Source of the DNA: an uncultured Candidatus Actinomarina sp.
GTDB lineage: Bacteria > Actinomycetota > Acidimicrobiia > Actinomarinales > Actinomarinaceae
Direction of reading: 5' to 3'
DNA: 64,000 nt
Assembly: GCA_902526825.1 (NCBI GenBank)
Contig: CABZMN010000002.1
Span: forward strand, 26,265-90,264
A model generated the notes under the pieces. The model made no database searches and was not told the DNA's origin. It saw nothing but the letters and a program-made list of their open reading frames with translations. Below are positions 5,212 to 55,904 of the stretch, one piece after another; the first letter of the stretch is position 1, and each line of letters begins with the position of its first letter. Made by a program: the position numbers and the translations under genes.

Positions 5212-5244
5212 CCATACTTATAGATATACTCTTTATAACGAGCA

Positions 5245-5400
5245 ATATAGCGCCTGGCCTTTAACGAGGTGACGAGGAAGTATGTTATCGAAAAATTCGG
5301 CGGATGCATACTCGGCTCTGCAGTCGATATAAATTGTTTAAAAACAGAAAAAAATTTCTGAACAGAGACAATTTAAAGCAGTCTTTATTTTAACCTGCTC
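5245..5400 (+). ncRNA. glmS ribozyme: glmS ribozyme (GlcN6P-dependent self-cleaving riboswitch) in the glmS 5' UTR
   Basis: Conserved core read directly: A^GCGCC (cleavage between A5249 and G5250), GACGAGG (5271-5277), P2 arms GUAUG (5280-5284) / CAUAC (5307-5311) enclosing UUAUCGAA...UUCGGCGGAUG. Peripheral domain: AAAUUGU (5331-5337) / ACAAUUU (5368-5374) around hairpin CAGAAA (5345-5350) / UUUCUG (5355-5360). Ends just upstream of the glmS ATG at 5418. Confidence 0.82.
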
Positions 5401-5417
5401 GTTGGAATGGAGATATA

Positions 5418-7214
5418 ATGTGTGGAATTGTAGGGTATTCAGGCCCTAAAGAACCTTTACCAATCTTAATAAATGGTCTCTCTCGTTTGGAGTATCGAGG
5501 ATATGATTCTGCTGGAATAGCAATTTCTGATGGAAGCAAAATAACGATTGAAAAAAAAGAGGGTAAACTCGATATCTTAAAAGAACATTTAGAAGATAAG
5601 CAAATTTTAGGAAATATTGGGATTGGTCATACAAGATGGGCAACTCATGGAGTACCGAATGATGTGAATGCACATCCACATTCAGACAATAATGATGAAT
5701 TTGCAATCATTCACAATGGCATTATTGAAAATTATGCAGAAATCAAGAAAGATCTTATAAACGATGGATTTAAATTTAATTCAGACACTGACACGGAGGT
5801 CGTAGCTGTAGAGTTAAGCAGAAAATGGAATGGAAATCTTTTAAAAACAGTCGTGAATGTAGCAAGAACACTTGAGGGAACATATGCCCTTGTTGTAACT
5901 GCAACTAAAGAAGAAGGCACTATTGTTGCAGGAAGATTAATGAGTCCTTTAGTCCTTGGAGTTGGTGATAATGAGGTTTTTCTTGCATCTGATTCAGCAG
6001 CAATCTTGGAACACACAAAGAAAATGATATTTCTTGAAAATGGTGATTTTGTAGAAATTAAAAATGGTAAGTATAAGTTGTTCGATTCTGAATTAAATGA
6101 AATCCAGAGAGAAATTCAAGAAATCGATTGGGAGGTATCTGAAGCAGAGAAGTCAGGGTATGACCATTTTATGTATAAAGAAATACTTGAACAATCTGAG
6201 GTAATCGAAAGAACTTTATCTGGAAGGCTTGAAGCATCCTCAGATGAAATCCCAATTAAGTTAGACGAGGCTTCAAAATTTGAAAAAATTTGGATTGTTG
6301 CATGTGGAACAGCCTATCATGCAGGTTTGTTTGGGAAAGACCTATTTGAGAAAGTTCTTGGAGTTCCGGTAAGTGTTGAGCTTGCTTCCGAGTTCAGATA
6401 TAGAGAACCAATCGTCGGAAAAAACGATTTAGGTATTGTAATTTCCCAGTCCGGAGAAACCATGGACACTATTGCTGCTACAGAATTATTAAAGGAAAAT
6501 GGTTCACATGTTCTTGCTTTAGTAAATGTGGTTGGTAGTTCGCTAGCAAGAATAGCTGATAGTATATTTTATTTACATGTAGGTCCAGAGATAGGAGTAG
6601 CTTCAACCAAAGCTTATTTAGGCATGCTTGTTTCTCAGCTTGTTATAGCAAAACAGTGGGATGCAGAAAATAAGTTAGATGTCTCATTTGATGAAATTGC
6701 AGAACTCCCAAACCTAATAGACCAGACCATGGCTTGTGAAGGGCAAATAAAAGAAATATCCGAAAAAATCTATAAAAAGAATGATATCTATTTTATTGGT
6801 CGAGGATTGGATTATGCTTTGGCAGCTGAAGGTGCATTAAAATTAAAAGAAATTTCCTATCTTCATGCTGAGGCGTTAGCAGCTGGAGAGCTTAAACACG
6901 GCACGCTTGCTTTAATAGAAAAAGGGACCCCTGTAATAGTTACTGCTAGTCAAAATCATCTACTTGATAAGACGACCAGTAATGTACAAGAGGTTATCGC
7001 TAGGGGCGCATATGTAATTGCTATTGGAGATAGTCAATCAGAAAAACTTGAAAATATATCAAATGATTTTGTCACACTACCAGATAGTAATGAAATACTA
7101 ACTACTGTGATCTCGATTATACCTCTACAATTTATTGCTTATCACGTAGCTAACAAGAATGGCCAATCGATTGATCAACCAAGAAACCTTGCAAAGTCAG
7201 TTACTGTAGAATAA
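5418..7214 (+). CDS. glmS: glutamine--fructose-6-phosphate aminotransferase (isomerizing)
   Basis: MCGIVGY N-terminal nucleophile, two SIS domains, C-terminus ...DQPRNLAKSVTVE, characteristic of GlmS. Confidence 0.97.
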   Translation: MCGIVGYSGPKEPLPILINGLSRLEYRGYDSAGIAISDGSKITIEKKEGKLDILKEHLEDKQILGNIGIGHTRWATHGVPNDVNAHPHSDNNDEFAIIHNGIIENYAEIKKDLINDGFKFNSDTDTEVVAVELSRKWNGNLLKTVVNVARTLEGTYALVVTATKEEGTIVAGRLMSPLVLGVGDNEVFLASDSAAILEHTKKMIFLENGDFVEIKNGKYKLFDSELNEIQREIQEIDWEVSEAEKSGYDHFMYKEILEQSEVIERTLSGRLEASSDEIPIKLDEASKFEKIWIVACGTAYHAGLFGKDLFEKVLGVPVSVELASEFRYREPIVGKNDLGIVISQSGETMDTIAATELLKENGSHVLALVNVVGSSLARIADSIFYLHVGPEIGVASTKAYLGMLVSQLVIAKQWDAENKLDVSFDEIAELPNLIDQTMACEGQIKEISEKIYKKNDIYFIGRGLDYALAAEGALKLKEISYLHAEALAAGELKHGTLALIEKGTPVIVTASQNHLLDKTTSNVQEVIARGAYVIAIGDSQSEKLENISNDFVTLPDSNEILTTVISIIPLQFIAYHVANKNGQSIDQPRNLAKSVTVE

Positions 7215-18962: not shown

Positions 18963-19950
18963 AATAGATTACTCAAATAACTTTAATGATCTATATATAG
19001 ATCTAAAAAATTATATAAATACTAATAATCATGTGGTATTTCTTGACTCTAATCTTTCATCAATTTTTAACCCAGATGAGAATTTAAATATTTTTAAAAT
19101 TGATATAAATGAATCAACCAAGGACTTAGAGACTATACAAAAGCTCTGGGCAATTATGTTTGATCAATCTTTAGATAGAAATTCTAAAGTTATTGGGATT
19201 GGTGGAGGTGTACTTACTGATTTAGTGGGTTTTGCAACCAGTACGTTCAAACGTGGTGCAAAACTATGTTTAATACCGTCGACGTTGCTTGGGATGGTAG
19301 ATGCAGCTCATGGAGGTAAGAATGGTTTTAACAACGACTATGGTAAAAATCAGATTGGAACCTTCTTTATTCCAGAAAAAATATTGATTTGCTCAGAATT
19401 TTTAGATTCCCTTTCTGAAAATGAACTTAATAATGGAATAATTGAATCCATTAAGGCTGGCTTTTTATGGGATAGAACAATACTTGAGTTGATATATGTT
19501 GATGATTTTATGAAAAATATCGATGAAATAATAAAAAAAAGTGTAAAAGTGAAAAATAGTATATTACACAATGATATTGAAGAAAGTAATGAAAGAATGT
19601 TTCTAAATTTAGGACATACAATAGGACACCTAATTGAAAAAGATTCGGATTACAGTGTTTCCCATGGACAGGCTGTAGCTATTGGAATTCTTAAAGGCCT
19701 TGAAATAGCTGAGACTAAGTACCATCTTGATAATAATGTGAAACATCAGTTTGAAGATTTTTTGAATAAAAAATCACTAAAAACAAATTATAAATTTTTA
19801 AATGATAACAATTATCTAAAAGAGATAATTTCAAATGATAAGAAAGTATCAAATGACATAATTAAGTTCGTATTAATAGAAGATATTGAGAAACCTATTT
19901 TGATTGATTTACACATAAACGATCTTTTGGAGGTTTTAATTAATGGGTAA
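18949..19950 (+). CDS. aroB: 3-dehydroquinate synthase
   Basis: ...IGIGGGVLTDLVGFATSTFKRGAKLCLIPSTLLGMVDAAHGGKNG...LNLGHTIGHLIE...SHGQAVAIG... shows the DHQS NAD- and metal-binding motifs. Confidence 0.88.
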   Translation: MKLSEIDYSNNFNDLYIDLKNYINTNNHVVFLDSNLSSIFNPDENLNIFKIDINESTKDLETIQKLWAIMFDQSLDRNSKVIGIGGGVLTDLVGFATSTFKRGAKLCLIPSTLLGMVDAAHGGKNGFNNDYGKNQIGTFFIPEKILICSEFLDSLSENELNNGIIESIKAGFLWDRTILELIYVDDFMKNIDEIIKKSVKVKNSILHNDIEESNERMFLNLGHTIGHLIEKDSDYSVSHGQAVAIGILKGLEIAETKYHLDNNVKHQFEDFLNKKSLKTNYKFLNDNNYLKEIISNDKKVSNDIIKFVLIEDIEKPILIDLHINDLLEVLING

Positions 19951-20374
19951 AATTGTAATCATCAATGGTCCAAATTTAAATTTTCTTGGGCAAAGAGAAA
20001 TTGATAAATATGGAACAACTACTTATAAGGAATTAATTTCTGAACTTGAAGACTACACAAACAATCAAGATAAATTAATTTTTTATCAATCCAATCATGA
20101 GGGAGAAATATGTGAATTTATCCAAAATATTTTCAATAATGAAGCGATTGACGGTTTGATAATTAATCCTGGTGGATATACTCACACAAGTGTGGCAATA
20201 AGAGATTCATTACTACTTCTAAATTTACCTATCGTGGAAGTACATATGACAGATATTAGAAAGAGGGAAAACTTTAGAAAAACAAATTTAATTCACGATG
20301 TATGTGAAGAGTCATTTGTAGGTTTAGGTATTGATGGTTACAAAAAAGGAATTGATTATATAAATGAAAAATGA
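19943..20374 (+). CDS. aroQ: type II 3-dehydroquinate dehydratase
   Basis: IVIINGPNLNFLGQREIDKYG...QSNHEGEI...IINPGGYTHTSVAIRD...PIVEVHMTDI.. is the AroQ signature. Confidence 0.93.
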   Translation: MGKIVIINGPNLNFLGQREIDKYGTTTYKELISELEDYTNNQDKLIFYQSNHEGEICEFIQNIFNNEAIDGLIINPGGYTHTSVAIRDSLLLLNLPIVEVHMTDIRKRENFRKTNLIHDVCEESFVGLGIDGYKKGIDYINEK

Positions 20375-24831: not shown

Positions 24832-25242
24832 TTATTTACATTTATTACAAACTCCCGCATACACGAAATGATTGTCAATTAAATTAAAATTTGATTCTTT
24901 TGCAATAATTTTTTCGACAGAGTTGATGACGTTTTTTGAAATGTCTTTAATCTTTTTACAACTGTTACAGACTATATGAGCAGTTCTTTCTTGGTTTTTA
25001 AGATAATAAATTCCTGAGCCATGTTGCTGGTGTGAATGCTCTACAAGATCTAATGACTCAAGAATTTCTAGTGTTCTATATACGGTCACTAAATCAATGT
25101 CTTGAACTCTGTTTAAGGCAAGTTTGTATAATTCATCTGCTGTAAAATGTTCATGACCTGCTTCTTCAAGAATTTTACAAATTGTACTTCTTGACTCAGT
25201 AATACGATTACCATTATTTCTTAGTTTATTAATCAGATCCAT
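24832..25242 (-). CDS. Fur-family metalloregulator (Fur/Zur/Nur/PerR; specificity unresolved)
   Basis: Winged-helix N-domain ...RITESRSTICKILEEAGHEHFTADELYK...VTVYRTLEILESLDLV, His cluster EHSHQQHG, and two CxxC pairs (CNSC, CNKC) forming the structural Zn site. Confidence 0.88.
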   Translation of the reverse strand: MDLINKLRNNGNRITESRSTICKILEEAGHEHFTADELYKLALNRVQDIDLVTVYRTLEILESLDLVEHSHQQHGSGIYYLKNQERTAHIVCNSCKKIKDISKNVINSVEKIIAKESNFNLIDNHFVYAGVCNKCK

Positions 25243-25277: not shown

Positions 25278-25751
25278 ATGAAAAAAATTCTTTTAAAGTT
25301 TATCAATAGATACAGCCTTATTTACTTACCTTTGGGCTGGATATTTGGCTTAGTCATATTTTTTATCGCATTTGAGCCTTCAATCGTTCTATATATATTA
25401 AGTTTTTTTGTGATAGGTTCTTTTTTTGGATTGTATTTATTTAATTCAGAACGAGGTTTAGTTGTTGATAATCATAATTTTTCAAACTTTGAATATACAA
25501 TAATTGAATTTTACTCTGACTACTGACTGGGTTGTACTGCTTCAAAATTCATAGTTAATGAATTTAAAAAAAAGCATGAAGAAATACCAATTGTATCGGT
25601 AAATGCTTCAAAAAAAGATTATTTTGAGACTATTGAAAAATATAATCTTAAATATACACCAACATATGTTCTTGTAGACAAATATGGAGATAAAATTTAT
25701 AAAAGGGTCGGTACTTTTAATGTTGAGAAGTTTGACTCTTTGGTTAGTTAA
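25278..25751 (+). CDS. membrane-anchored thioredoxin-like protein interrupted by an in-frame TGA (25524-25526) at the first active-site Cys position; Sec-decoding candidate or recent pseudogene
   Basis: The ORF-track product (2 TM helices) ends ...FEYTIIEFYSDY-TGA. The same frame stays open for 74 more codons to TAA 25749-25751: LGCTASKFIVNEFKKKHEEIPIVSVNASKKDYFETIEKYNLKYTPTYVLVDKYGDKIYKRVGTFNVEKFDSLVS. Together this reads as a thioredoxin fold: beta1 IIEFY, [TGA]-L-G-C in place of C-x-x-C, cis-Pro TPT, DKYG.. strand. The downstream part has no ATG/GTG and no early TTG. Confidence 0.6.
25545..25565 (+). other. hairpin 21 nt downstream of the in-frame TGA (SECIS-like geometry)
   Basis: AAATTCAT (25545-25552) / ATGAATTT (25558-25565), 8 bp, loop AGUUA containing G-U. 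AU-rich, so chance occurrence in this genome is plausible. Confidence 0.3.
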
Positions 25752-26110: not shown

Positions 26111-26650
26111 ATGTCAAAAATTTTACTTTTATCGGCTGGAACAAGACCGGAATCAAAAAATAATAAAGCAGCAGCTATTGTTAATAACTACCTGAGTGAA
26201 TTAGATATATCTTGTAATCTTTATGATGATTTTTATGAAGATGTTCCTTTTCTACGAGATTACAATGATGAACAACCTGAATATGTCATTAAAGTAAGAG
26301 ATGATTTAATTGAAACTTCTAAAATAATAATATTCAGTCCTGTTTTCAATGGAGGTTATGTATCTCATTTGAAGAATTTACTCGATTGGCTTTCAATAAG
26401 TTTTGATAACTATTCTTACAATGAATTATTTAAAGATAAGGATGTTGCAATTATTAGTTCAGTTGACGGTAAGGGCAACAATGCAAAGAATGCATTTGAT
26501 TTACTGGGTGCTCAACTTAGCAATTATGGATTGAACGTATACGAAAATTTTTATTTATTTAATGAAGAACATAAAGTTGATGATTTACTAACTAATGATT
26601 CCAAAAGTAAAGACTTCTTGAGTTATATAGAATCATTTCTTCGTAGTTAA
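26111..26650 (+). CDS. NAD(P)H-dependent FMN reductase-like flavoprotein
   Basis: ILLLSAGTRPESKNNK... N-terminus and ...IIIFSPVFNGGYVSHLKNLLDWLS... match the flavodoxin-like NADPH-FMN reductase pattern (SxRxxSxN, P.YN...s..lKn.lDw). Confidence 0.7.
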   Translation: MSKILLLSAGTRPESKNNKAAAIVNNYLSELDISCNLYDDFYEDVPFLRDYNDEQPEYVIKVRDDLIETSKIIIFSPVFNGGYVSHLKNLLDWLSISFDNYSYNELFKDKDVAIISSVDGKGNNAKNAFDLLGAQLSNYGLNVYENFYLFNEEHKVDDLLTNDSKSKDFLSYIESFLRS

Positions 26651-27361
26651 AACCTCATTTATCTTTTCAAAAAATAGATTTGTTAACTCATCAACTTCAT
26701 ACTTATGTATATCGTCAATAGGTTTCAAAACATCCAAATGTATCTCACCAGATAAAAACCAAACCTTACCTTTTATCATTAAATTATGTGCATTGTGTGT
26801 AACAACTGGTAAAACAGATAAATTGAATTTTTTAGCAATATGTGCTGCTCCTTTTTTAAAGTCCAAAAGATTTTTTTGATTACTTCTTTTACCTTCTGGA
26901 AATATCATTATTGAATTACCATCATCTATAACACTTTGTATCGAATTATTAATTTTATCAAGATCTAATGATGAACTACCCCTATCAATTCTTGGAAGAC
27001 CAAGAATCTTCAATACTCTACTAAAGAAAGGAATACGGAAAAGTTCAGTCTTAGTTAGGAATCTTACAGATATTGGTAACCCATAAATGTGGGTAAATAT
27101 ATCAAGAGTTGATGGGTGATTAGAAACTACAACATAACTTTTACTGGTATCAATATTTTCTAAACCAGAAACGGTTAAATTAATCCCAACCATTCTTAAT
27201 CCCAGCCATCCAAAAAATTTGTAATATTTTGTTGCTAATAACTTTCCATTTGGAATAAAGGCCGTAAGTATTATAAGAATTATTAAAAAGCTAAATAAAA
27301 TTATGAATAATGGAAACATAATAAATGTTTTTAATTTTGTTCCAAAACTTACGGGATTCAT
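26633..27361 (-). CDS. plsC: 1-acyl-sn-glycerol-3-phosphate acyltransferase
   Basis: N-terminal TM segment, acyltransferase block I VVSNHPSTLD (HX4D), block III FPEGKRS. Confidence 0.85.
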   Translation of the reverse strand: MNPVSFGTKLKTFIMFPLFIILFSFLIILIILTAFIPNGKLLATKYYKFFGWLGLRMVGINLTVSGLENIDTSKSYVVVSNHPSTLDIFTHIYGLPISVRFLTKTELFRIPFFSRVLKILGLPRIDRGSSSLDLDKINNSIQSVIDDGNSIMIFPEGKRSNQKNLLDFKKGAAHIAKKFNLSVLPVVTHNAHNLMIKGKVWFLSGEIHLDVLKPIDDIHKYEVDELTNLFFEKINEVLTTKK

Positions 27362-31191: not shown

Positions 31192-33324
31192 ATGAATAAA
31201 TTAAAACCACTTCCTGAAGAATGGTCAGGATTACTAAATAATGAACAAAAAGAAGCGATTGAAAATATTAATGGTCCTTTACTCATTATTGCTGGGGCAG
31301 GTTCAGGTAAAACAAGAGTCTTAACTTACAGATATGCACATTTAATAAAAACATATGGGATAAATTTTGAAAATGTGTTGGCTATTACATTTACAAATAA
31401 AGCTGCAAATGAAATGAAAGATAGAATAAGTGATTTACTAAATCTTGAGCTGTCTCCGAAATGGATATCTACGTTTCATAGTCTTTGTGTCAAAATGTTA
31501 AGAATACATGGCCATCTGATTGGCTTTAATAATAATTTTACTATTTACGACCAAAGCGACTCTACAAAATTAGTTCGTAATTGTATGCGAGATTCTGATA
31601 TTGACACAAAACAATATTCTCCAAAAAGAATACAAGCACATATCTCATCTTTAAAAAATCAAAGGATCTTACCTGGAGAAGCTGTTGAATTTGCACAATC
31701 GTTTTTTGATGTAAAAGTCGCAGAGATTTATTCATCGTATCAGAAAAAACTTATGCTAGCTAACTCAATGGATTTTGATGACTTACTAATTAAAGCAGTA
31801 GAACTTCTTGAGACAAGTGACAAGTCCCTAAATTACTGGTCTTCAAAATTTCAATACATAATGATTGACGAGTATCAAGATACTAATATGGTGCAATATC
31901 GTCTTGTTGAACTACTTGCATCAAAACACAAGAATATCTGTGTTGTTGGGGATTCTGATCAAAGCATATATGCATTTAGGGGTGCGGATATTAGAAATAT
32001 TGAAGAGTTTGAAAGTGACTTTAAGAATGCAAAAGTTATATCTTTAGAAAAAAATTATAGGTCTTCCCAAAAAATTTTAGATATTGCAAATGCAGTAATT
32101 TCTAACAATCCAAGAAAAAAAGATAAAAAATTATGGACTGATAATGACGAAGGATTAGATGTAAATTTAGTTGAATTCAATTCTGAAAGAGATGAATCAA
32201 GATGGATAGCTGAACATATAAATAAACTTTTAGAAGATAAAGCGTTTACTGAAATTGCTATTTTTTATAGAACAAATAATCAATCAAGACTCTTTGAAGA
32301 AGAGTTAAGAAAATTAAGTTTAAGTTATAAGGTTGTTGGTAATGTGAGATTTTACGACAGGAAAGAGATTAAAGATATTCTTGCATATTTAAATTACTTA
32401 ATAAACCCTGAGGATACAGTCTCATTTGAGAGAATATTAAATGTCCCCAAAAGAGGAATTGGGGAGTCAACACTTCAGAAGTTAAGAGATTACGCAAACA
32501 AAAATGAGATTTCTTTATCAAAATCTATAGAAAATCTAGATGAAATCAATAATTTATCTGACAGGGTAAAAAAACAAATAAATAATTTCAAAGAGATAGT
32601 TAATGACTTGAAATCCTTTGCATTGCAGGGCCCTTCAGAAACAATTTCAAAAACTTTAGAATTAACAGGCTACAAAGATGAATTAGTTAAAGAAGGAACT
32701 TTAGACTCTCAAATGAGATTGGAAAATCTTGATGAATTACTTACTTCAGCATTTGAATTTGAAAATTTATACGAAGAAGACATAGAAGATCCATTTACAG
32801 TTCTAAGAGACTATTTAGAATCAATCGCACTTTTCACAGATTCAGACGATGTAGACAAAGAAGATAGAATTCTGCTAATGACCCTTCATAATGCTAAAGG
32901 ATTGGAGTTCCCGGTAGTATTCATGACTGGGATGGAGGAAAACATATTTCCTAGTCAAAGATCTGAAACTGATTTTGAAATACAAGAAGAAAGAAGACTT
33001 TGTTATGTTGGGATGACGAGGGCTGAAAAAAAGCTTTATTTAACATATTCAAATACCAGAACTATGTGGGGAGGAACAAATTATTATCTCCCAAGCAGAT
33101 TCATCGATGAAGCTAAACCCTATTTGAAAGAAATTAAAATTCATCAAGAATCAACCGATAACAAAAGTAATTCTGTAGGTTCTCTCGGAAAGAAAGTGAT
33201 ACATGAAAAATATGGTTCGGGAATTGTTGAAGAAGTGAATGGTAATGAGATTACAGTTAACTTTGGTAGAGAGCATGGAATCAAACATTTAGATATTGAA
33301 TGGGCCCCAATAATATTTGAATGA
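31192..33324 (+). CDS. pcrA: ATP-dependent DNA helicase PcrA/UvrD (SF1)
   Basis: LLIIAGAGSGKTRVLT (motif I), MIDEYQDTN (II), VGDSDQSIYAFRGA (III), NYRS (IV), TLHNAKGLEFPVVF (V), VGMTRAEKKLYL (VI). Confidence 0.93.
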   Translation: MNKLKPLPEEWSGLLNNEQKEAIENINGPLLIIAGAGSGKTRVLTYRYAHLIKTYGINFENVLAITFTNKAANEMKDRISDLLNLELSPKWISTFHSLCVKMLRIHGHLIGFNNNFTIYDQSDSTKLVRNCMRDSDIDTKQYSPKRIQAHISSLKNQRILPGEAVEFAQSFFDVKVAEIYSSYQKKLMLANSMDFDDLLIKAVELLETSDKSLNYWSSKFQYIMIDEYQDTNMVQYRLVELLASKHKNICVVGDSDQSIYAFRGADIRNIEEFESDFKNAKVISLEKNYRSSQKILDIANAVISNNPRKKDKKLWTDNDEGLDVNLVEFNSERDESRWIAEHINKLLEDKAFTEIAIFYRTNNQSRLFEEELRKLSLSYKVVGNVRFYDRKEIKDILAYLNYLINPEDTVSFERILNVPKRGIGESTLQKLRDYANKNEISLSKSIENLDEINNLSDRVKKQINNFKEIVNDLKSFALQGPSETISKTLELTGYKDELVKEGTLDSQMRLENLDELLTSAFEFENLYEEDIEDPFTVLRDYLESIALFTDSDDVDKEDRILLMTLHNAKGLEFPVVFMTGMEENIFPSQRSETDFEIQEERRLCYVGMTRAEKKLYLTYSNTRTMWGGTNYYLPSRFIDEAKPYLKEIKIHQESTDNKSNSVGSLGKKVIHEKYGSGIVEEVNGNEITVNFGREHGIKHLDIEWAPIIFE

Positions 33325-33371: not shown

Positions 33372-34505
33372 ATGGACTTATTTGAATATCAAGGAAAATC
33401 TTTATATCAAAAATTTAATATAAATCACCCCAACTCAAAACTAATTAAAAACCTAAACGATTTAAATGACCCAATTAATCTCAAATTTCCCGTTGTTGTT
33501 AAAGCTCAGGTACAAGTTGGGGGAAGAGGAAAAGCGGGAGGTATCAAGGTAGCTAAAGACAATACCGAGTTAACACAATATTCTGAAGAAATATTAGGTA
33601 TGGATATAAAAGGCCACAAGGTAGAAATCCTTCTCTTAGAGGAAGCATCAAATATTTTAGAGGAATATTATATCTCATTTACTTTAGACAGGTCTGAAAA
33701 AAAATATTTAATTATGTTGAGTGCTAAAGGAGGTATGGACATCGAACAAGTTGCAGAAGAAAATCCAGATGACTTAATAAAGTTTCATGTAAGTCCATCA
33801 GAAAAATTAATGTCATCAACTATTTCTGAATTAATTCATAAAGCTAATTTGAATAAAAATCATGAAGAAAGTCTTTCTGAAATAATAGAAAACTTGTATT
33901 TGATGTTCACAGAAGGAGATTGTGATCTTGTAGAGGTCAATCCTCTTGCAATTACAGACAATGGAGTAATGGCACTTGATTCAAAAGTATCATTGGATAT
34001 GAATGCAAAATATAAACATCCATATTTTGATGATTTTGAACAAGAAATACCAATTCCTGAATCCGAGAAAAATGCAAAAGAAAAAGGATTAAATTTTATA
34101 AAACTTGATGGATCTGTTGGAATTATTGGAAATGGTGCAGGTTTAGTCATGTCTACGCTTGATGTAGTTGCTGAAAATGGTGGTAAAGCAGCAAATTTTC
34201 TTGATATTGGTGGTGGAGCAAAAGCTGAGACTGTAAGTTCTGCTCTAGAAGTTTTAGAGGCTGATAAAAATGTAAAGTCAGTATTCATAAATATATTTGG
34301 TGGAATTACAAGGTGTGATTTAGTTGCTGAAGGGATAATCGAGGCAACAAAAGGAAAAGAACTTGTATGGCCAATTATCATTAGGTTAGACGGAACAAAT
34401 TCTTTAGAAGGACTAGAGATATTAAAAGCAAACCCTAATGAAAAAATATTCATAGAAGAGTCAATGGATTCGGCTGCAAAATTGGCAGTTCAGAAAGGTC
34501 TATAA
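33372..34505 (+). CDS. sucC: succinate--CoA ligase (ADP-forming) subunit beta
   Basis: MDLFEYQGK..., VVVKAQVQVGGRGKAGGIK, ...GNIGIIGNGAGLVMSTLD..., FINIFGGITRCD. Confidence 0.96.
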   Translation: MDLFEYQGKSLYQKFNINHPNSKLIKNLNDLNDPINLKFPVVVKAQVQVGGRGKAGGIKVAKDNTELTQYSEEILGMDIKGHKVEILLLEEASNILEEYYISFTLDRSEKKYLIMLSAKGGMDIEQVAEENPDDLIKFHVSPSEKLMSSTISELIHKANLNKNHEESLSEIIENLYLMFTEGDCDLVEVNPLAITDNGVMALDSKVSLDMNAKYKHPYFDDFEQEIPIPESEKNAKEKGLNFIKLDGSVGIIGNGAGLVMSTLDVVAENGGKAANFLDIGGGAKAETVSSALEVLEADKNVKSVFINIFGGITRCDLVAEGIIEATKGKELVWPIIIRLDGTNSLEGLEILKANPNEKIFIEESMDSAAKLAVQKGL

Positions 34506-55687: not shown

Positions 55688-55764
55688 CGCGGGGTGGAGC
55701 AGTCTGGTAGCTCGCTGGGCTCATAACCCAGAGGTCGTAGGTTCAAATCCTACCCCCGCTACCA
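55688..55764 (+). tRNA. metZ: initiator tRNA-fMet (anticodon CAT), CCA encoded
   Basis: Folded by hand: acceptor CGCGGGG/CCCCGCU with a C1xU72 mismatch, D-stem GAGC/GCUC (A11:U24), anticodon stem CUGGG/CCCAG with three consecutive G:C pairs, loop CUCAUAA, T-arm GUAGG-UUCAAAU-CCUAC, 3' ACCA. Near-identical in layout to E. coli tRNA-fMet. Confidence 0.95.
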
Positions 55765-55766
55765 AA

Positions 55767-55904
55767 TCACCTAATAAATAGATCTATAAGTCGTTTTCTT
55801 CCAGTAGATGCAGCAATAAGTTTTAAAGTAAATATACCCATTGCACCTAAAAATCCAAGTGTCCCAAGAACTAGGACAATTCGCCAAATCATTATTGCAT
55901 CCAT
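55767..55904 (-). CDS. possible 45-aa single-pass membrane peptide (not in the ORF track)
   Basis: ATG 55904 to TGA 55767: MDAIMIWRIVLVLGTLGFLGAMGIFTLKLIAASTGRKRLIDLFIR. One hydrophobic helix plus a basic tail. Lies 31 nt downstream of the TlpA-like gene on the same strand. No clear SD. Confidence 0.3.
   Translation of the reverse strand: MDAIMIWRIVLVLGTLGFLGAMGIFTLKLIAASTGRKRLIDLFIR

Follow-up and report, generated by a model that had tools for sequence, protein, structure and literature searches.

A predicted membrane-anchored UxxC selenoprotein gene of Candidatus Actinomarina with a conserved hairpin after its in-frame UGA

Gene organization at 25278-25751

The window analyzed here is a 64-kb stretch of DNA from an uncultured Candidatus Actinomarina sp. 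(contig CABZMN010000002.1), and all coordinates are positions within it. At 25278-25751 lies a thioredoxin-like gene interrupted in frame by a TGA, which we interpret as a predicted membrane-anchored selenoprotein gene with selenocysteine (Sec) in the first position of a UxxC motif. An ATG at 25278 opens an 82-codon open reading frame (ORF) that is closed by the TGA at 25524-25526; past this codon the same frame remains open for 74 further codons, up to a TAA at 25749-25751. The part that follows the TGA contains no in-frame ATG or GTG, and its sole in-frame TTG is located three codons from the end, so that it has no usable start codon and cannot be a separate gene. A first-pass annotation of this DNA had described the same frame and had likewise dismissed an independent downstream gene; both its coordinates and its reasoning were reproduced. 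The TGA at codon 83 is the only in-frame TGA of the window with flanking open frames on both sides that lie outside other ORFs, and this arrangement, a single such case in 64 kb, exceeds chance. The features of the gene are as follows.

25278..25751, forward strand: predicted complete selenoprotein gene, 157 codons plus TAA (reading frame, orthologue conservation, AlphaFold2 (AF2) model)
25323..25448, forward strand: two predicted transmembrane (TM) helices (residues 16-31 and 36-57) with the short acidic loop E-P-S between them (AF2, hydropathy, charge tally)
25491..25733, forward strand: thioredoxin-fold domain, residues 72-152, beta-alpha-beta-alpha-beta-beta-alpha (Pfam PF00085, AF2, Foldseek)
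25524..25526, forward strand: in-frame UGA, codon 83, putative Sec codon (TGA in orthologues, TGC in Cys-form relatives)
25524..25535, forward strand: redox motif U-L-G-C, in which UxxC stands for CxxC, at the N-terminus of helix alpha-1
25546..25564, forward strand: hairpin resembling a bacterial Sec insertion sequence (bSECIS), with a 7-bp stem (25546-25552/25558-25564) and the apical loop AGUUA (25553-25557)
25656..25664, forward strand: T-P-T, residues 127-129, at the usual position of the cis-proline loop of thioredoxin folds (T127 and P128 invariant)

Conservation and selection around codon 83

To place codon 83 in an evolutionary context, we assembled 33 copies of the gene (26 distinct), comprising the window, 17 genome loci from a scan in which a single genome represented each GTDB species, and 15 metagenome loci, with metagenome relatives down to 49% identity. 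By label, 15 of the genome loci belong to Candidatus Actinomarina, one to Acidimicrobiaceae and one to a 'Saprospiraceae' metagenome-assembled genome (MAG). The last of these (L004, JAKVCV010000044.1) is a 4.7-kb contig whose protein is 97% identical to the Actinomarina one; almost certainly it belongs to Actinomarina and was binned wrongly.

All 33 Actinomarina-clade copies carry TGA at codon 83, and none carries TGT, TGC, TAA or TAG. These copies come from independent single-amplified genomes (SAGs), MAGs and metagenomes, and their protein identities span 49-97%. The codons beside the TGA drift synonymously, as seen for Y82 (TAC/TAT), L84 (CTG/CTA/CTT), G85 (GGT/GGA/GGC/GGG) and C86 (TGT/TGC), and the residues L84, G85, C86, T127 and P128 are invariant across the clade alignment. 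Every one of the 18 genome-derived copies is exactly 157 codons long, with no indels and no second stops. Ratios of nonsynonymous to synonymous divergence (dN/dS, Nei-Gojobori) range from 0.01 to 0.13 before the TGA and, in the majority of pairs, from 0.03 to 0.29 after it; the highest value there, 0.43, comes with saturated dS, and between clades synonymous divergence is saturated. These ratios show purifying selection on both sides of the TGA, so that the in-frame UGA is embedded in selected coding sequence. The first-pass annotation had proposed asking whether relatives carry TGA or Cys at this codon, and whether the frame after it and the hairpin persist while drift is only synonymous. All copies of the Actinomarina clade have TGA, frame and hairpin both persist with none but synonymous drift around them, and no copy shows the frame-destroying changes after the TGA that were expected of a decaying gene.

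Cysteine and TGA forms in distant relatives

When 1.84 billion representative proteins were searched with a profile, 353 matched at E <= 0.001. Many of these are about 160 residues long and have the same layout of two helices followed by a thioredoxin domain. Aligned to codon 83, distant relatives carry either C-x-x-C (SPYCLGC, SEYCVGC, SDYCAGC) or a residue written 'W' in W-x-x-C, and the T-P-T region is kept as xTPTxxx or xxPTxxx. The codons found at the aligned position are given below.

L034/L035: Cys form, GC 66-67%, codon TGC
L066: Cys form, GC 55%, codon TGC
L033: 'W' form, GC 39%, codon TGA
L063/L064: 'W' form, GC 27%, codon TGA
L065: 'W' form, GC 38%, codon TGA

UGA homologues are thus present in other organisms, at four distant-lineage loci of 27-39% GC, and the TGC of L034/L035 and L066 provides Cys homologues that align with the UGA. 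The pairing of Sec and Cys at one aligned codon is the classical signature by which selenoproteins are called.

At L066:1136-1705, a gene for a methyltransferase of the TPMT/TehB type follows the Cys form, the two overlapping by 4 nt. Since selenium and tellurium compounds are known substrates of such enzymes in bacteria, the neighbor suggests a possible chalcogen link for the family.

TGA as an ordinary stop codon and the tryptophan of the databases

Elsewhere in the window TGA behaves as an ordinary stop. It closes 16 of the 67 long ORFs (24%), where read-through would add only 0-28 codons. At the orthologous stops of at least eight neighboring genes it is exchanged with TAA or TAG in related genomes, examples being 19943-20374, 26633-27361, 31192-33324, 33372-34505 and the Fur-family gene described below, unlike the TGA at codon 83, which is never exchanged. 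The first-pass annotation had rested its case for TGA as a true stop on alr, rimI, tyrA and sdhB, and for the first three rightly so, since the Pfam matches of these ORFs, which encode an alanine racemase, a GNAT acetyltransferase and a prephenate dehydrogenase, reach the ORF ends. From its frequency as a terminator and its exchange with TAA and TAG, it follows that the genetic code is standard; the window does not display the disuse of UGA as a stop that characterizes genetic code 4.

The full-length homologues in a collection of 5.8 billion proteins are nonetheless all written with Trp at position 83. Contig look-ups returned 'translates_to_query: no', and the DNA reads TGA at all 'W' loci checked (the L001-L035 set and L063-L065). 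The Trp-83 of the databases is an artefact that arises when genes on short contigs of low GC are called with code 4.

These observations bear on the possibility that the UGA is read as a standard amino acid, be it Trp under code 4, near-cognate read-through, or Cys delivered by a Cys-charged tRNA(Sec)-like tRNA. The uniform 'W' and the low GC content of the genome would be in its favor, and some bacteria provide precedents, both for leaky read-through of UGA and for its recoding to Cys by tRNA(Sec)-like species. The 'W', as just shown, is a product of gene calling, and the terminating and exchangeable TGA codons speak against a reassigned code. Furthermore, a Trp at the attacking position of CxxC, where relatives have Cys, would abolish redox activity, and simple read-through has no need of a hairpin that is conserved, covaries and bears a G-U loop at the distance of a SECIS. 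We therefore consider this explanation very improbable.

A conserved and covarying hairpin downstream of the UGA

The first-pass annotation had reported an 8-bp hairpin (25545-25552/25558-25565) with the loop AGUUA. Its position and loop stand, but the conserved stem is 7 bp rather than 8: the outermost A-U pair (25545/25565) is found in 5 of 23 sequences, and only the inner seven pairs are conserved. The latter are paired in all 23 distinct Actinomarina-clade sequences, with one pair varying among U-A, U-G and C-G, and RNAalifold independently recovers the same structure. The loop has the consensus AGUUR, in which the G and the following U are invariant. The minimum of synonymous diversity of the whole gene also falls on the hairpin region, at codons 89-95 (0.08, where the gene as a whole averages 0.37); a stretch as low as this arose in 134 of 20,000 column permutations.

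Covariation was assessed on the Actinomarina clade together with three distant Sec-form lineages, aligned without gaps. Compensatory double changes occur at five of the seven pairs, 98.3% of the cells are paired, and the G-U of the loop is invariant in this wider set too. The covariation score was reached by none of 500 shuffles, and sliding the partner by 1-3 columns lowered pairing to 13-53%. The compensatory changes alter amino acids, one group having UUC...GAA (F...E) where the other has CCU...AGG (P...R). K-P-x-V-D-R, the peptide whose codons build the hairpin, is kept much more strictly in Sec forms than in Cys forms.

In the published consensus, as quoted by a 2026 review, a bSECIS has a loop of 3-9 nt, a stem of 4-16 bp and a UGA-to-loop distance of 16-37 nt, with a G at loop position 1 or 2 that in most cases precedes a G or U, and a minimum free energy (MFE) of -7.5 kcal/mol or lower (PMC13188914). 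With its 5-nt loop, 7-bp stem, G-U at loop positions 2-3 and UGA-to-loop distance of 26 nt, the Actinomarina hairpin fits this geometry, in line with the compatibility proposed at first pass.

Fold and membrane orientation of the predicted protein

With Cys placed at position 83, residues 72-152 match the Pfam Thioredoxin family PF00085 at 26.9 bits, above the cut-off of 23.5, and the match spans the TGA site. An AF2 model built from 23 homologues (mean pLDDT 83.4, pTM 0.76) places residue 83 directly before helix alpha-1 (residues 84-99). Foldseek searches of this model against the PDB returned thioredoxins as top matches and also StoA (3erw), with target-normalised TM-scores of 0.57-0.75. 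The thioredoxin fold behind two TM helices that had been proposed at first pass is therefore borne out by these three lines of evidence, with a CxxC-type motif at alpha-1 and a predicted cis-Pro loop. The protein does not score as a canonical TrxA, reaching 27.5 bits in the equivalog model TIGR01068 against a cut-off of 96.8. Among the curated NCBIfam models none reaches its cut-off for the 157-residue protein, which leaves the family without a name; weak sub-threshold matches were to DsbE, ResA, TlpA and slr1796. We designate the family by its sequence, MKKILLKFINRYSLIYLPLG.

Charges flanking the two helices were compared between groups. In the Actinomarina clade, the N-terminus has 3-5 Lys/Arg, the inter-helix loop 0-1 (mostly E-P-S), and the segment after helix 2 has 1-3, a pattern that predicts a cytoplasmic thioredoxin domain. 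In the majority of the distant relatives compared (P0078-P0207) the inter-helix loop is a positive segment, which predicts an external domain. The opposite charge patterns suggest that membrane topology may be inverted in the Actinomarina clade.

Neighboring genes and other features of the window

The gene is flanked upstream by a divergent regulator:

24832..25242, reverse strand: Fur-family regulator, 35 bp upstream (PF01475, E = 1.5e-27)

The first-pass annotation had recognized a Fur/PerR-family gene here. Its membership of the FUR family is clear, and the Fur and PerR models both match the product below their cut-offs. The adjacency is kept in every relative whose contig extends far enough, and this conserved adjacency suggests a possible regulatory link. 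On the other side, a convergent gene for a tRNA-binding-domain protein ends at 25748, with its stop codon overlapping the TAA at 25749-25751. Distant relatives share this 4-nt convergent overlap, as would fit an extremely streamlined genome. In a scan for promoters and terminators, promoter-like sites were rarer than expected by chance, and the scan was uninformative.

A relaxed scan of the window gave no second selenoprotein gene. The candidate at 55743-55904 was rejected, as it is the complement of the tRNA-Met gene. Further into the window, a glmS ribozyme (RF00234, 90 bits) was found at 5238-5385 on the forward strand, just upstream of the ORF 5418-7214. A match to RF03531 at 32956-33053 on the forward strand (67.0, gathering score 65.2) lies inside the UvrD-type helicase ORF 31192-33324 and is probably conserved helicase coding sequence rather than a small RNA. 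Among the related loci, the prephenate dehydratase orthologue (pheA) at L009:5091-5904 is split by a frameshift from frame 3 to frame 1. Its early TGA was rejected as an in-frame TGA, since it results from this frameshift, which is either an assembly error or a real indel.

Discussion

The gene at 25278-25751 is, with a probability of nearly nine in ten, a single predicted membrane-anchored UxxC selenoprotein gene with Sec at the attacking position. The first-pass annotation had leaned towards Sec decoding, and the universal TGA, the selection on both halves, the Cys homologues and the conserved hairpin all agree with it. Under this reading, a ribosome arriving at UGA-83 would encounter the 7-bp AGUUR hairpin within the coding sequence, acting as a bacterial SECIS. 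The hairpin would recruit SelB with GTP and Sec-tRNA(Sec), so that Sec would be inserted instead of translation being terminated. In the finished protein, the selenolate of U83 could attack a substrate disulfide or another oxidised sulfur or selenium species, and C86 would resolve the intermediate through an internal Se-S bond, after which a reductant would recycle the protein. Sec insertion, SelB binding, redox chemistry and Fur-family regulation are accordingly put forward here as predictions from comparative data.

Several results weigh against this interpretation, and a first set concerns the Sec machinery, whose absence from the window had already been pointed out at first pass. Neither the window, whose sole tRNA is tRNA-Met, nor its syntenic loci contain a tRNA-Sec, and searches for SelA, SelB and SelD by tblastn gave no homologue in the window or in 35 related loci. 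With E. coli SelD as query against the 5.8-billion-protein database, the best 120 matches held only Enterobacteriaceae. The pattern M-R-L-T...G-TGA-G-C-K, searched in metagenome DNA, retrieved Sec-type SelD genes, none of them from Actinomarina, and a marine SelD query gave no match with an Actinomarina-like amino-acid composition. The machinery itself is attested by one unreviewed preprint, which does not name the 25278-25751 gene.

In that preprint of April 2026, 'Actinomarina, resolved', all 84 complete Actinomarina genomes are reported to carry selC, selA and selD together with a selB that is divergent (bioRxiv 10.64898/2026.04.03.716425), and this reported universal presence answers the worry over absent machinery in a streamlined genome. 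It further describes the lack of a selenouridine synthase and about five selenoproteins per genome predicted by deep-Sep; it names a 78-aa unknown family, SelD and a K07090 family, and its main text makes no mention of thioredoxin (10.64898/2026.04.03.716425). According to the same source, Rfam models found no SECIS in the genus, and gene callers break genes at UGA (10.64898/2026.04.03.716425).

The SelD genes retrieved from marine contigs by the DNA pattern (L038-L061, 43-44% GC) are of the Sec type, beginning MRLTQFSHGAG-TGA-GCKLSP, and encode 344 aa. Their database copies show a related artefact, being shortened at the N-terminus to 286-324 aa, as gene callers restart after the TGA, and the copy in L058 is frameshifted.

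A second set of adverse results concerns the hairpin. The MFE over 60 nt is -7.0 kcal/mol in the window, which narrowly misses the consensus threshold of -7.5, compared with -8.1 in L018 and -8.9 in L021. These energies are no better than those of shuffled sequence (z of -0.25 in the window and -0.25 to -0.73 overall), and the consensus folding energy of the hairpin is only -3.9 to -5.6 kcal/mol. We have therefore dropped folding energy as an argument, and because the energy is not unusual, the support for the hairpin is evolutionary. An Rfam scan of the whole window at gathering scores found no SECIS family, and a permissive scan of 25400-25700 gave no SECIS but only chance matches (E = 7-8); of the covariance and pattern search suggested at first pass, the published geometry thus fits and the Rfam models do not match. 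Moreover, the three distant sequences have several of the compensatory changes in common, so that the independent events behind these may be few. The Cys-form controls, two examples, are mixed: in L034 the hairpin is absent (5/7 pairs, loop CCUCG), whereas L066 has kept it (6/7 pairs, loop CGUGG) along with the peptide KPIVDR. The hairpin may thus not be strictly Sec-specific, or that of L066 may be a fossil SECIS left after a recent change from Sec to Cys, and given this mixed outcome we do not claim Sec-specificity.

The persistence of the hairpin in one Cys form also hints at a role beyond Sec insertion, and would suit a scenario in which the 82-residue two-helix peptide is the main product, full-length protein is made conditionally, for example when selenium is available, and the UGA and hairpin serve chiefly as an attenuator or switch. 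As bacteria generally insert Sec with low efficiency, a truncated product is to be expected in any case, and the N-terminal half is the slower-evolving one (dN/dS of 0.01-0.13, against 0.03-0.43). The C-terminal half, however, is clearly under purifying selection with C86 and T-P-T invariant, which argues that the full-length protein is the selected product, and the Cys-form relatives make the full-length protein constitutively. As the principal function of the locus, a truncated peptide is hence a very doubtful proposition. A fresh pseudogene or a sequencing or assembly error, the other option raised at first pass, would need only a one-base change from TGT or TGC to TGA, in a window devoid of Sec machinery and in SAG-derived data that do contain errors such as the pheA frameshift of L009, but it is refuted by conservation, as the TGA recurs in 33 of 33 independent assemblies and at four loci of other lineages, with synonymous drift around it, no indel or second stop and low dN/dS after it.

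Having weighed these alternatives, we return to the predicted selenoprotein and its known counterparts. Thioredoxin-like proteins with UxxC are the commonest class of bacterial selenoproteins in marine metagenomes. Families of this kind were described from the Sargasso Sea in 2005 by Zhang & Gladyshev (PMC1088965) and from Global Ocean Sampling (GOS) data in 2008 (PMC2398784). The Actinomarina protein shares with them the thioredoxin fold, Sec as the first residue of UxxC, Cys homologues, a stem-loop after the UGA and abundance in surface-ocean metagenomes, whereas no host lineage, two-helix anchor, Fur-family neighbor or hairpin covariation was described in those papers. Of the GOS families, 'Trx-like 3' (212 marine-enriched UxxC sequences with weak similarity to cd02950) and 'GOS_C', a selenoprotein family of thioredoxin fold (PMC2398784), could each be the same as the protein described here, the comparison being one of descriptions. 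The Actinomarina lineage is not mentioned in BSepDB. With the deep-Sep Actinomarina selenoproteome of Nielsen & Lui (10.64898/2026.04.03.716425) our study has in common the genus and the UGA-containing genes, but no SECIS was obtained there via Rfam, and a specific conserved hairpin is defined here.

The hairpin resembles the SECIS of the E. coli fdhF type and the bSECISearch consensus in being a stem-loop within the coding sequence 3' of the UGA, with a small loop and an early G-U, but its stem is short and consists almost entirely of A-U pairs; the SelB of the lineage is called divergent in the preprint. At the protein level, ResA, StoA, TlpA, DsbE and the cyanobacterial TxlA likewise combine an N-terminal membrane anchor with a thioredoxin domain bearing a CxxC-type motif. 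ResA-type proteins have one TM helix, an extracytoplasmic domain, and extra N-terminal and central insertions, in contrast to the two TM helices, minimal domain of about 85 residues and predicted cytoplasmic orientation of the Actinomarina protein.

Sec use by Actinomarina was already known from the preprint (10.64898/2026.04.03.716425). What is new is that the gene has been identified along with its two-helix anchor, that the lineage now has a SECIS candidate supported by covariation, and that the Trp in the databases is recognized as spurious. The hairpin is the first concrete SECIS candidate backed by covariation for Actinomarina, where Rfam models fail. The selenoproteome for whose sake a 1.1-Mb genome keeps Sec machinery is very small, and the gene adds a predicted redox selenoprotein to it. 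Every database copy examined misrepresents the gene, either as an 82-residue fragment or at full length with Trp at the catalytic site, and gene callers thereby systematically conceal selenoproteins of abundant marine bacteria. Knowledge of how selenoproteins work is unchanged by this result.

A more far-reaching proposal concerns the hairpin and, separately, the membrane topology. The hairpin is in register in the Sec forms of at least four lineages (27-39% GC), through compensatory, peptide-changing substitutions, and it could conceivably be an ancient, family-wide SECIS, of which one or more Cys forms retain a fossil. Separately, the topology of the Actinomarina proteins could be inverted so that the Sec domain faces the cytoplasm. 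We regard this proposal as speculative and, on balance, unlikely. If it were true, a photoheterotroph that ranks among the most abundant and most streamlined of the ocean would possess a membrane-tethered cytoplasmic selenoreductase under Fur/PerR-type control, and the family would offer a natural system for tracing conversions between Sec and Cys.

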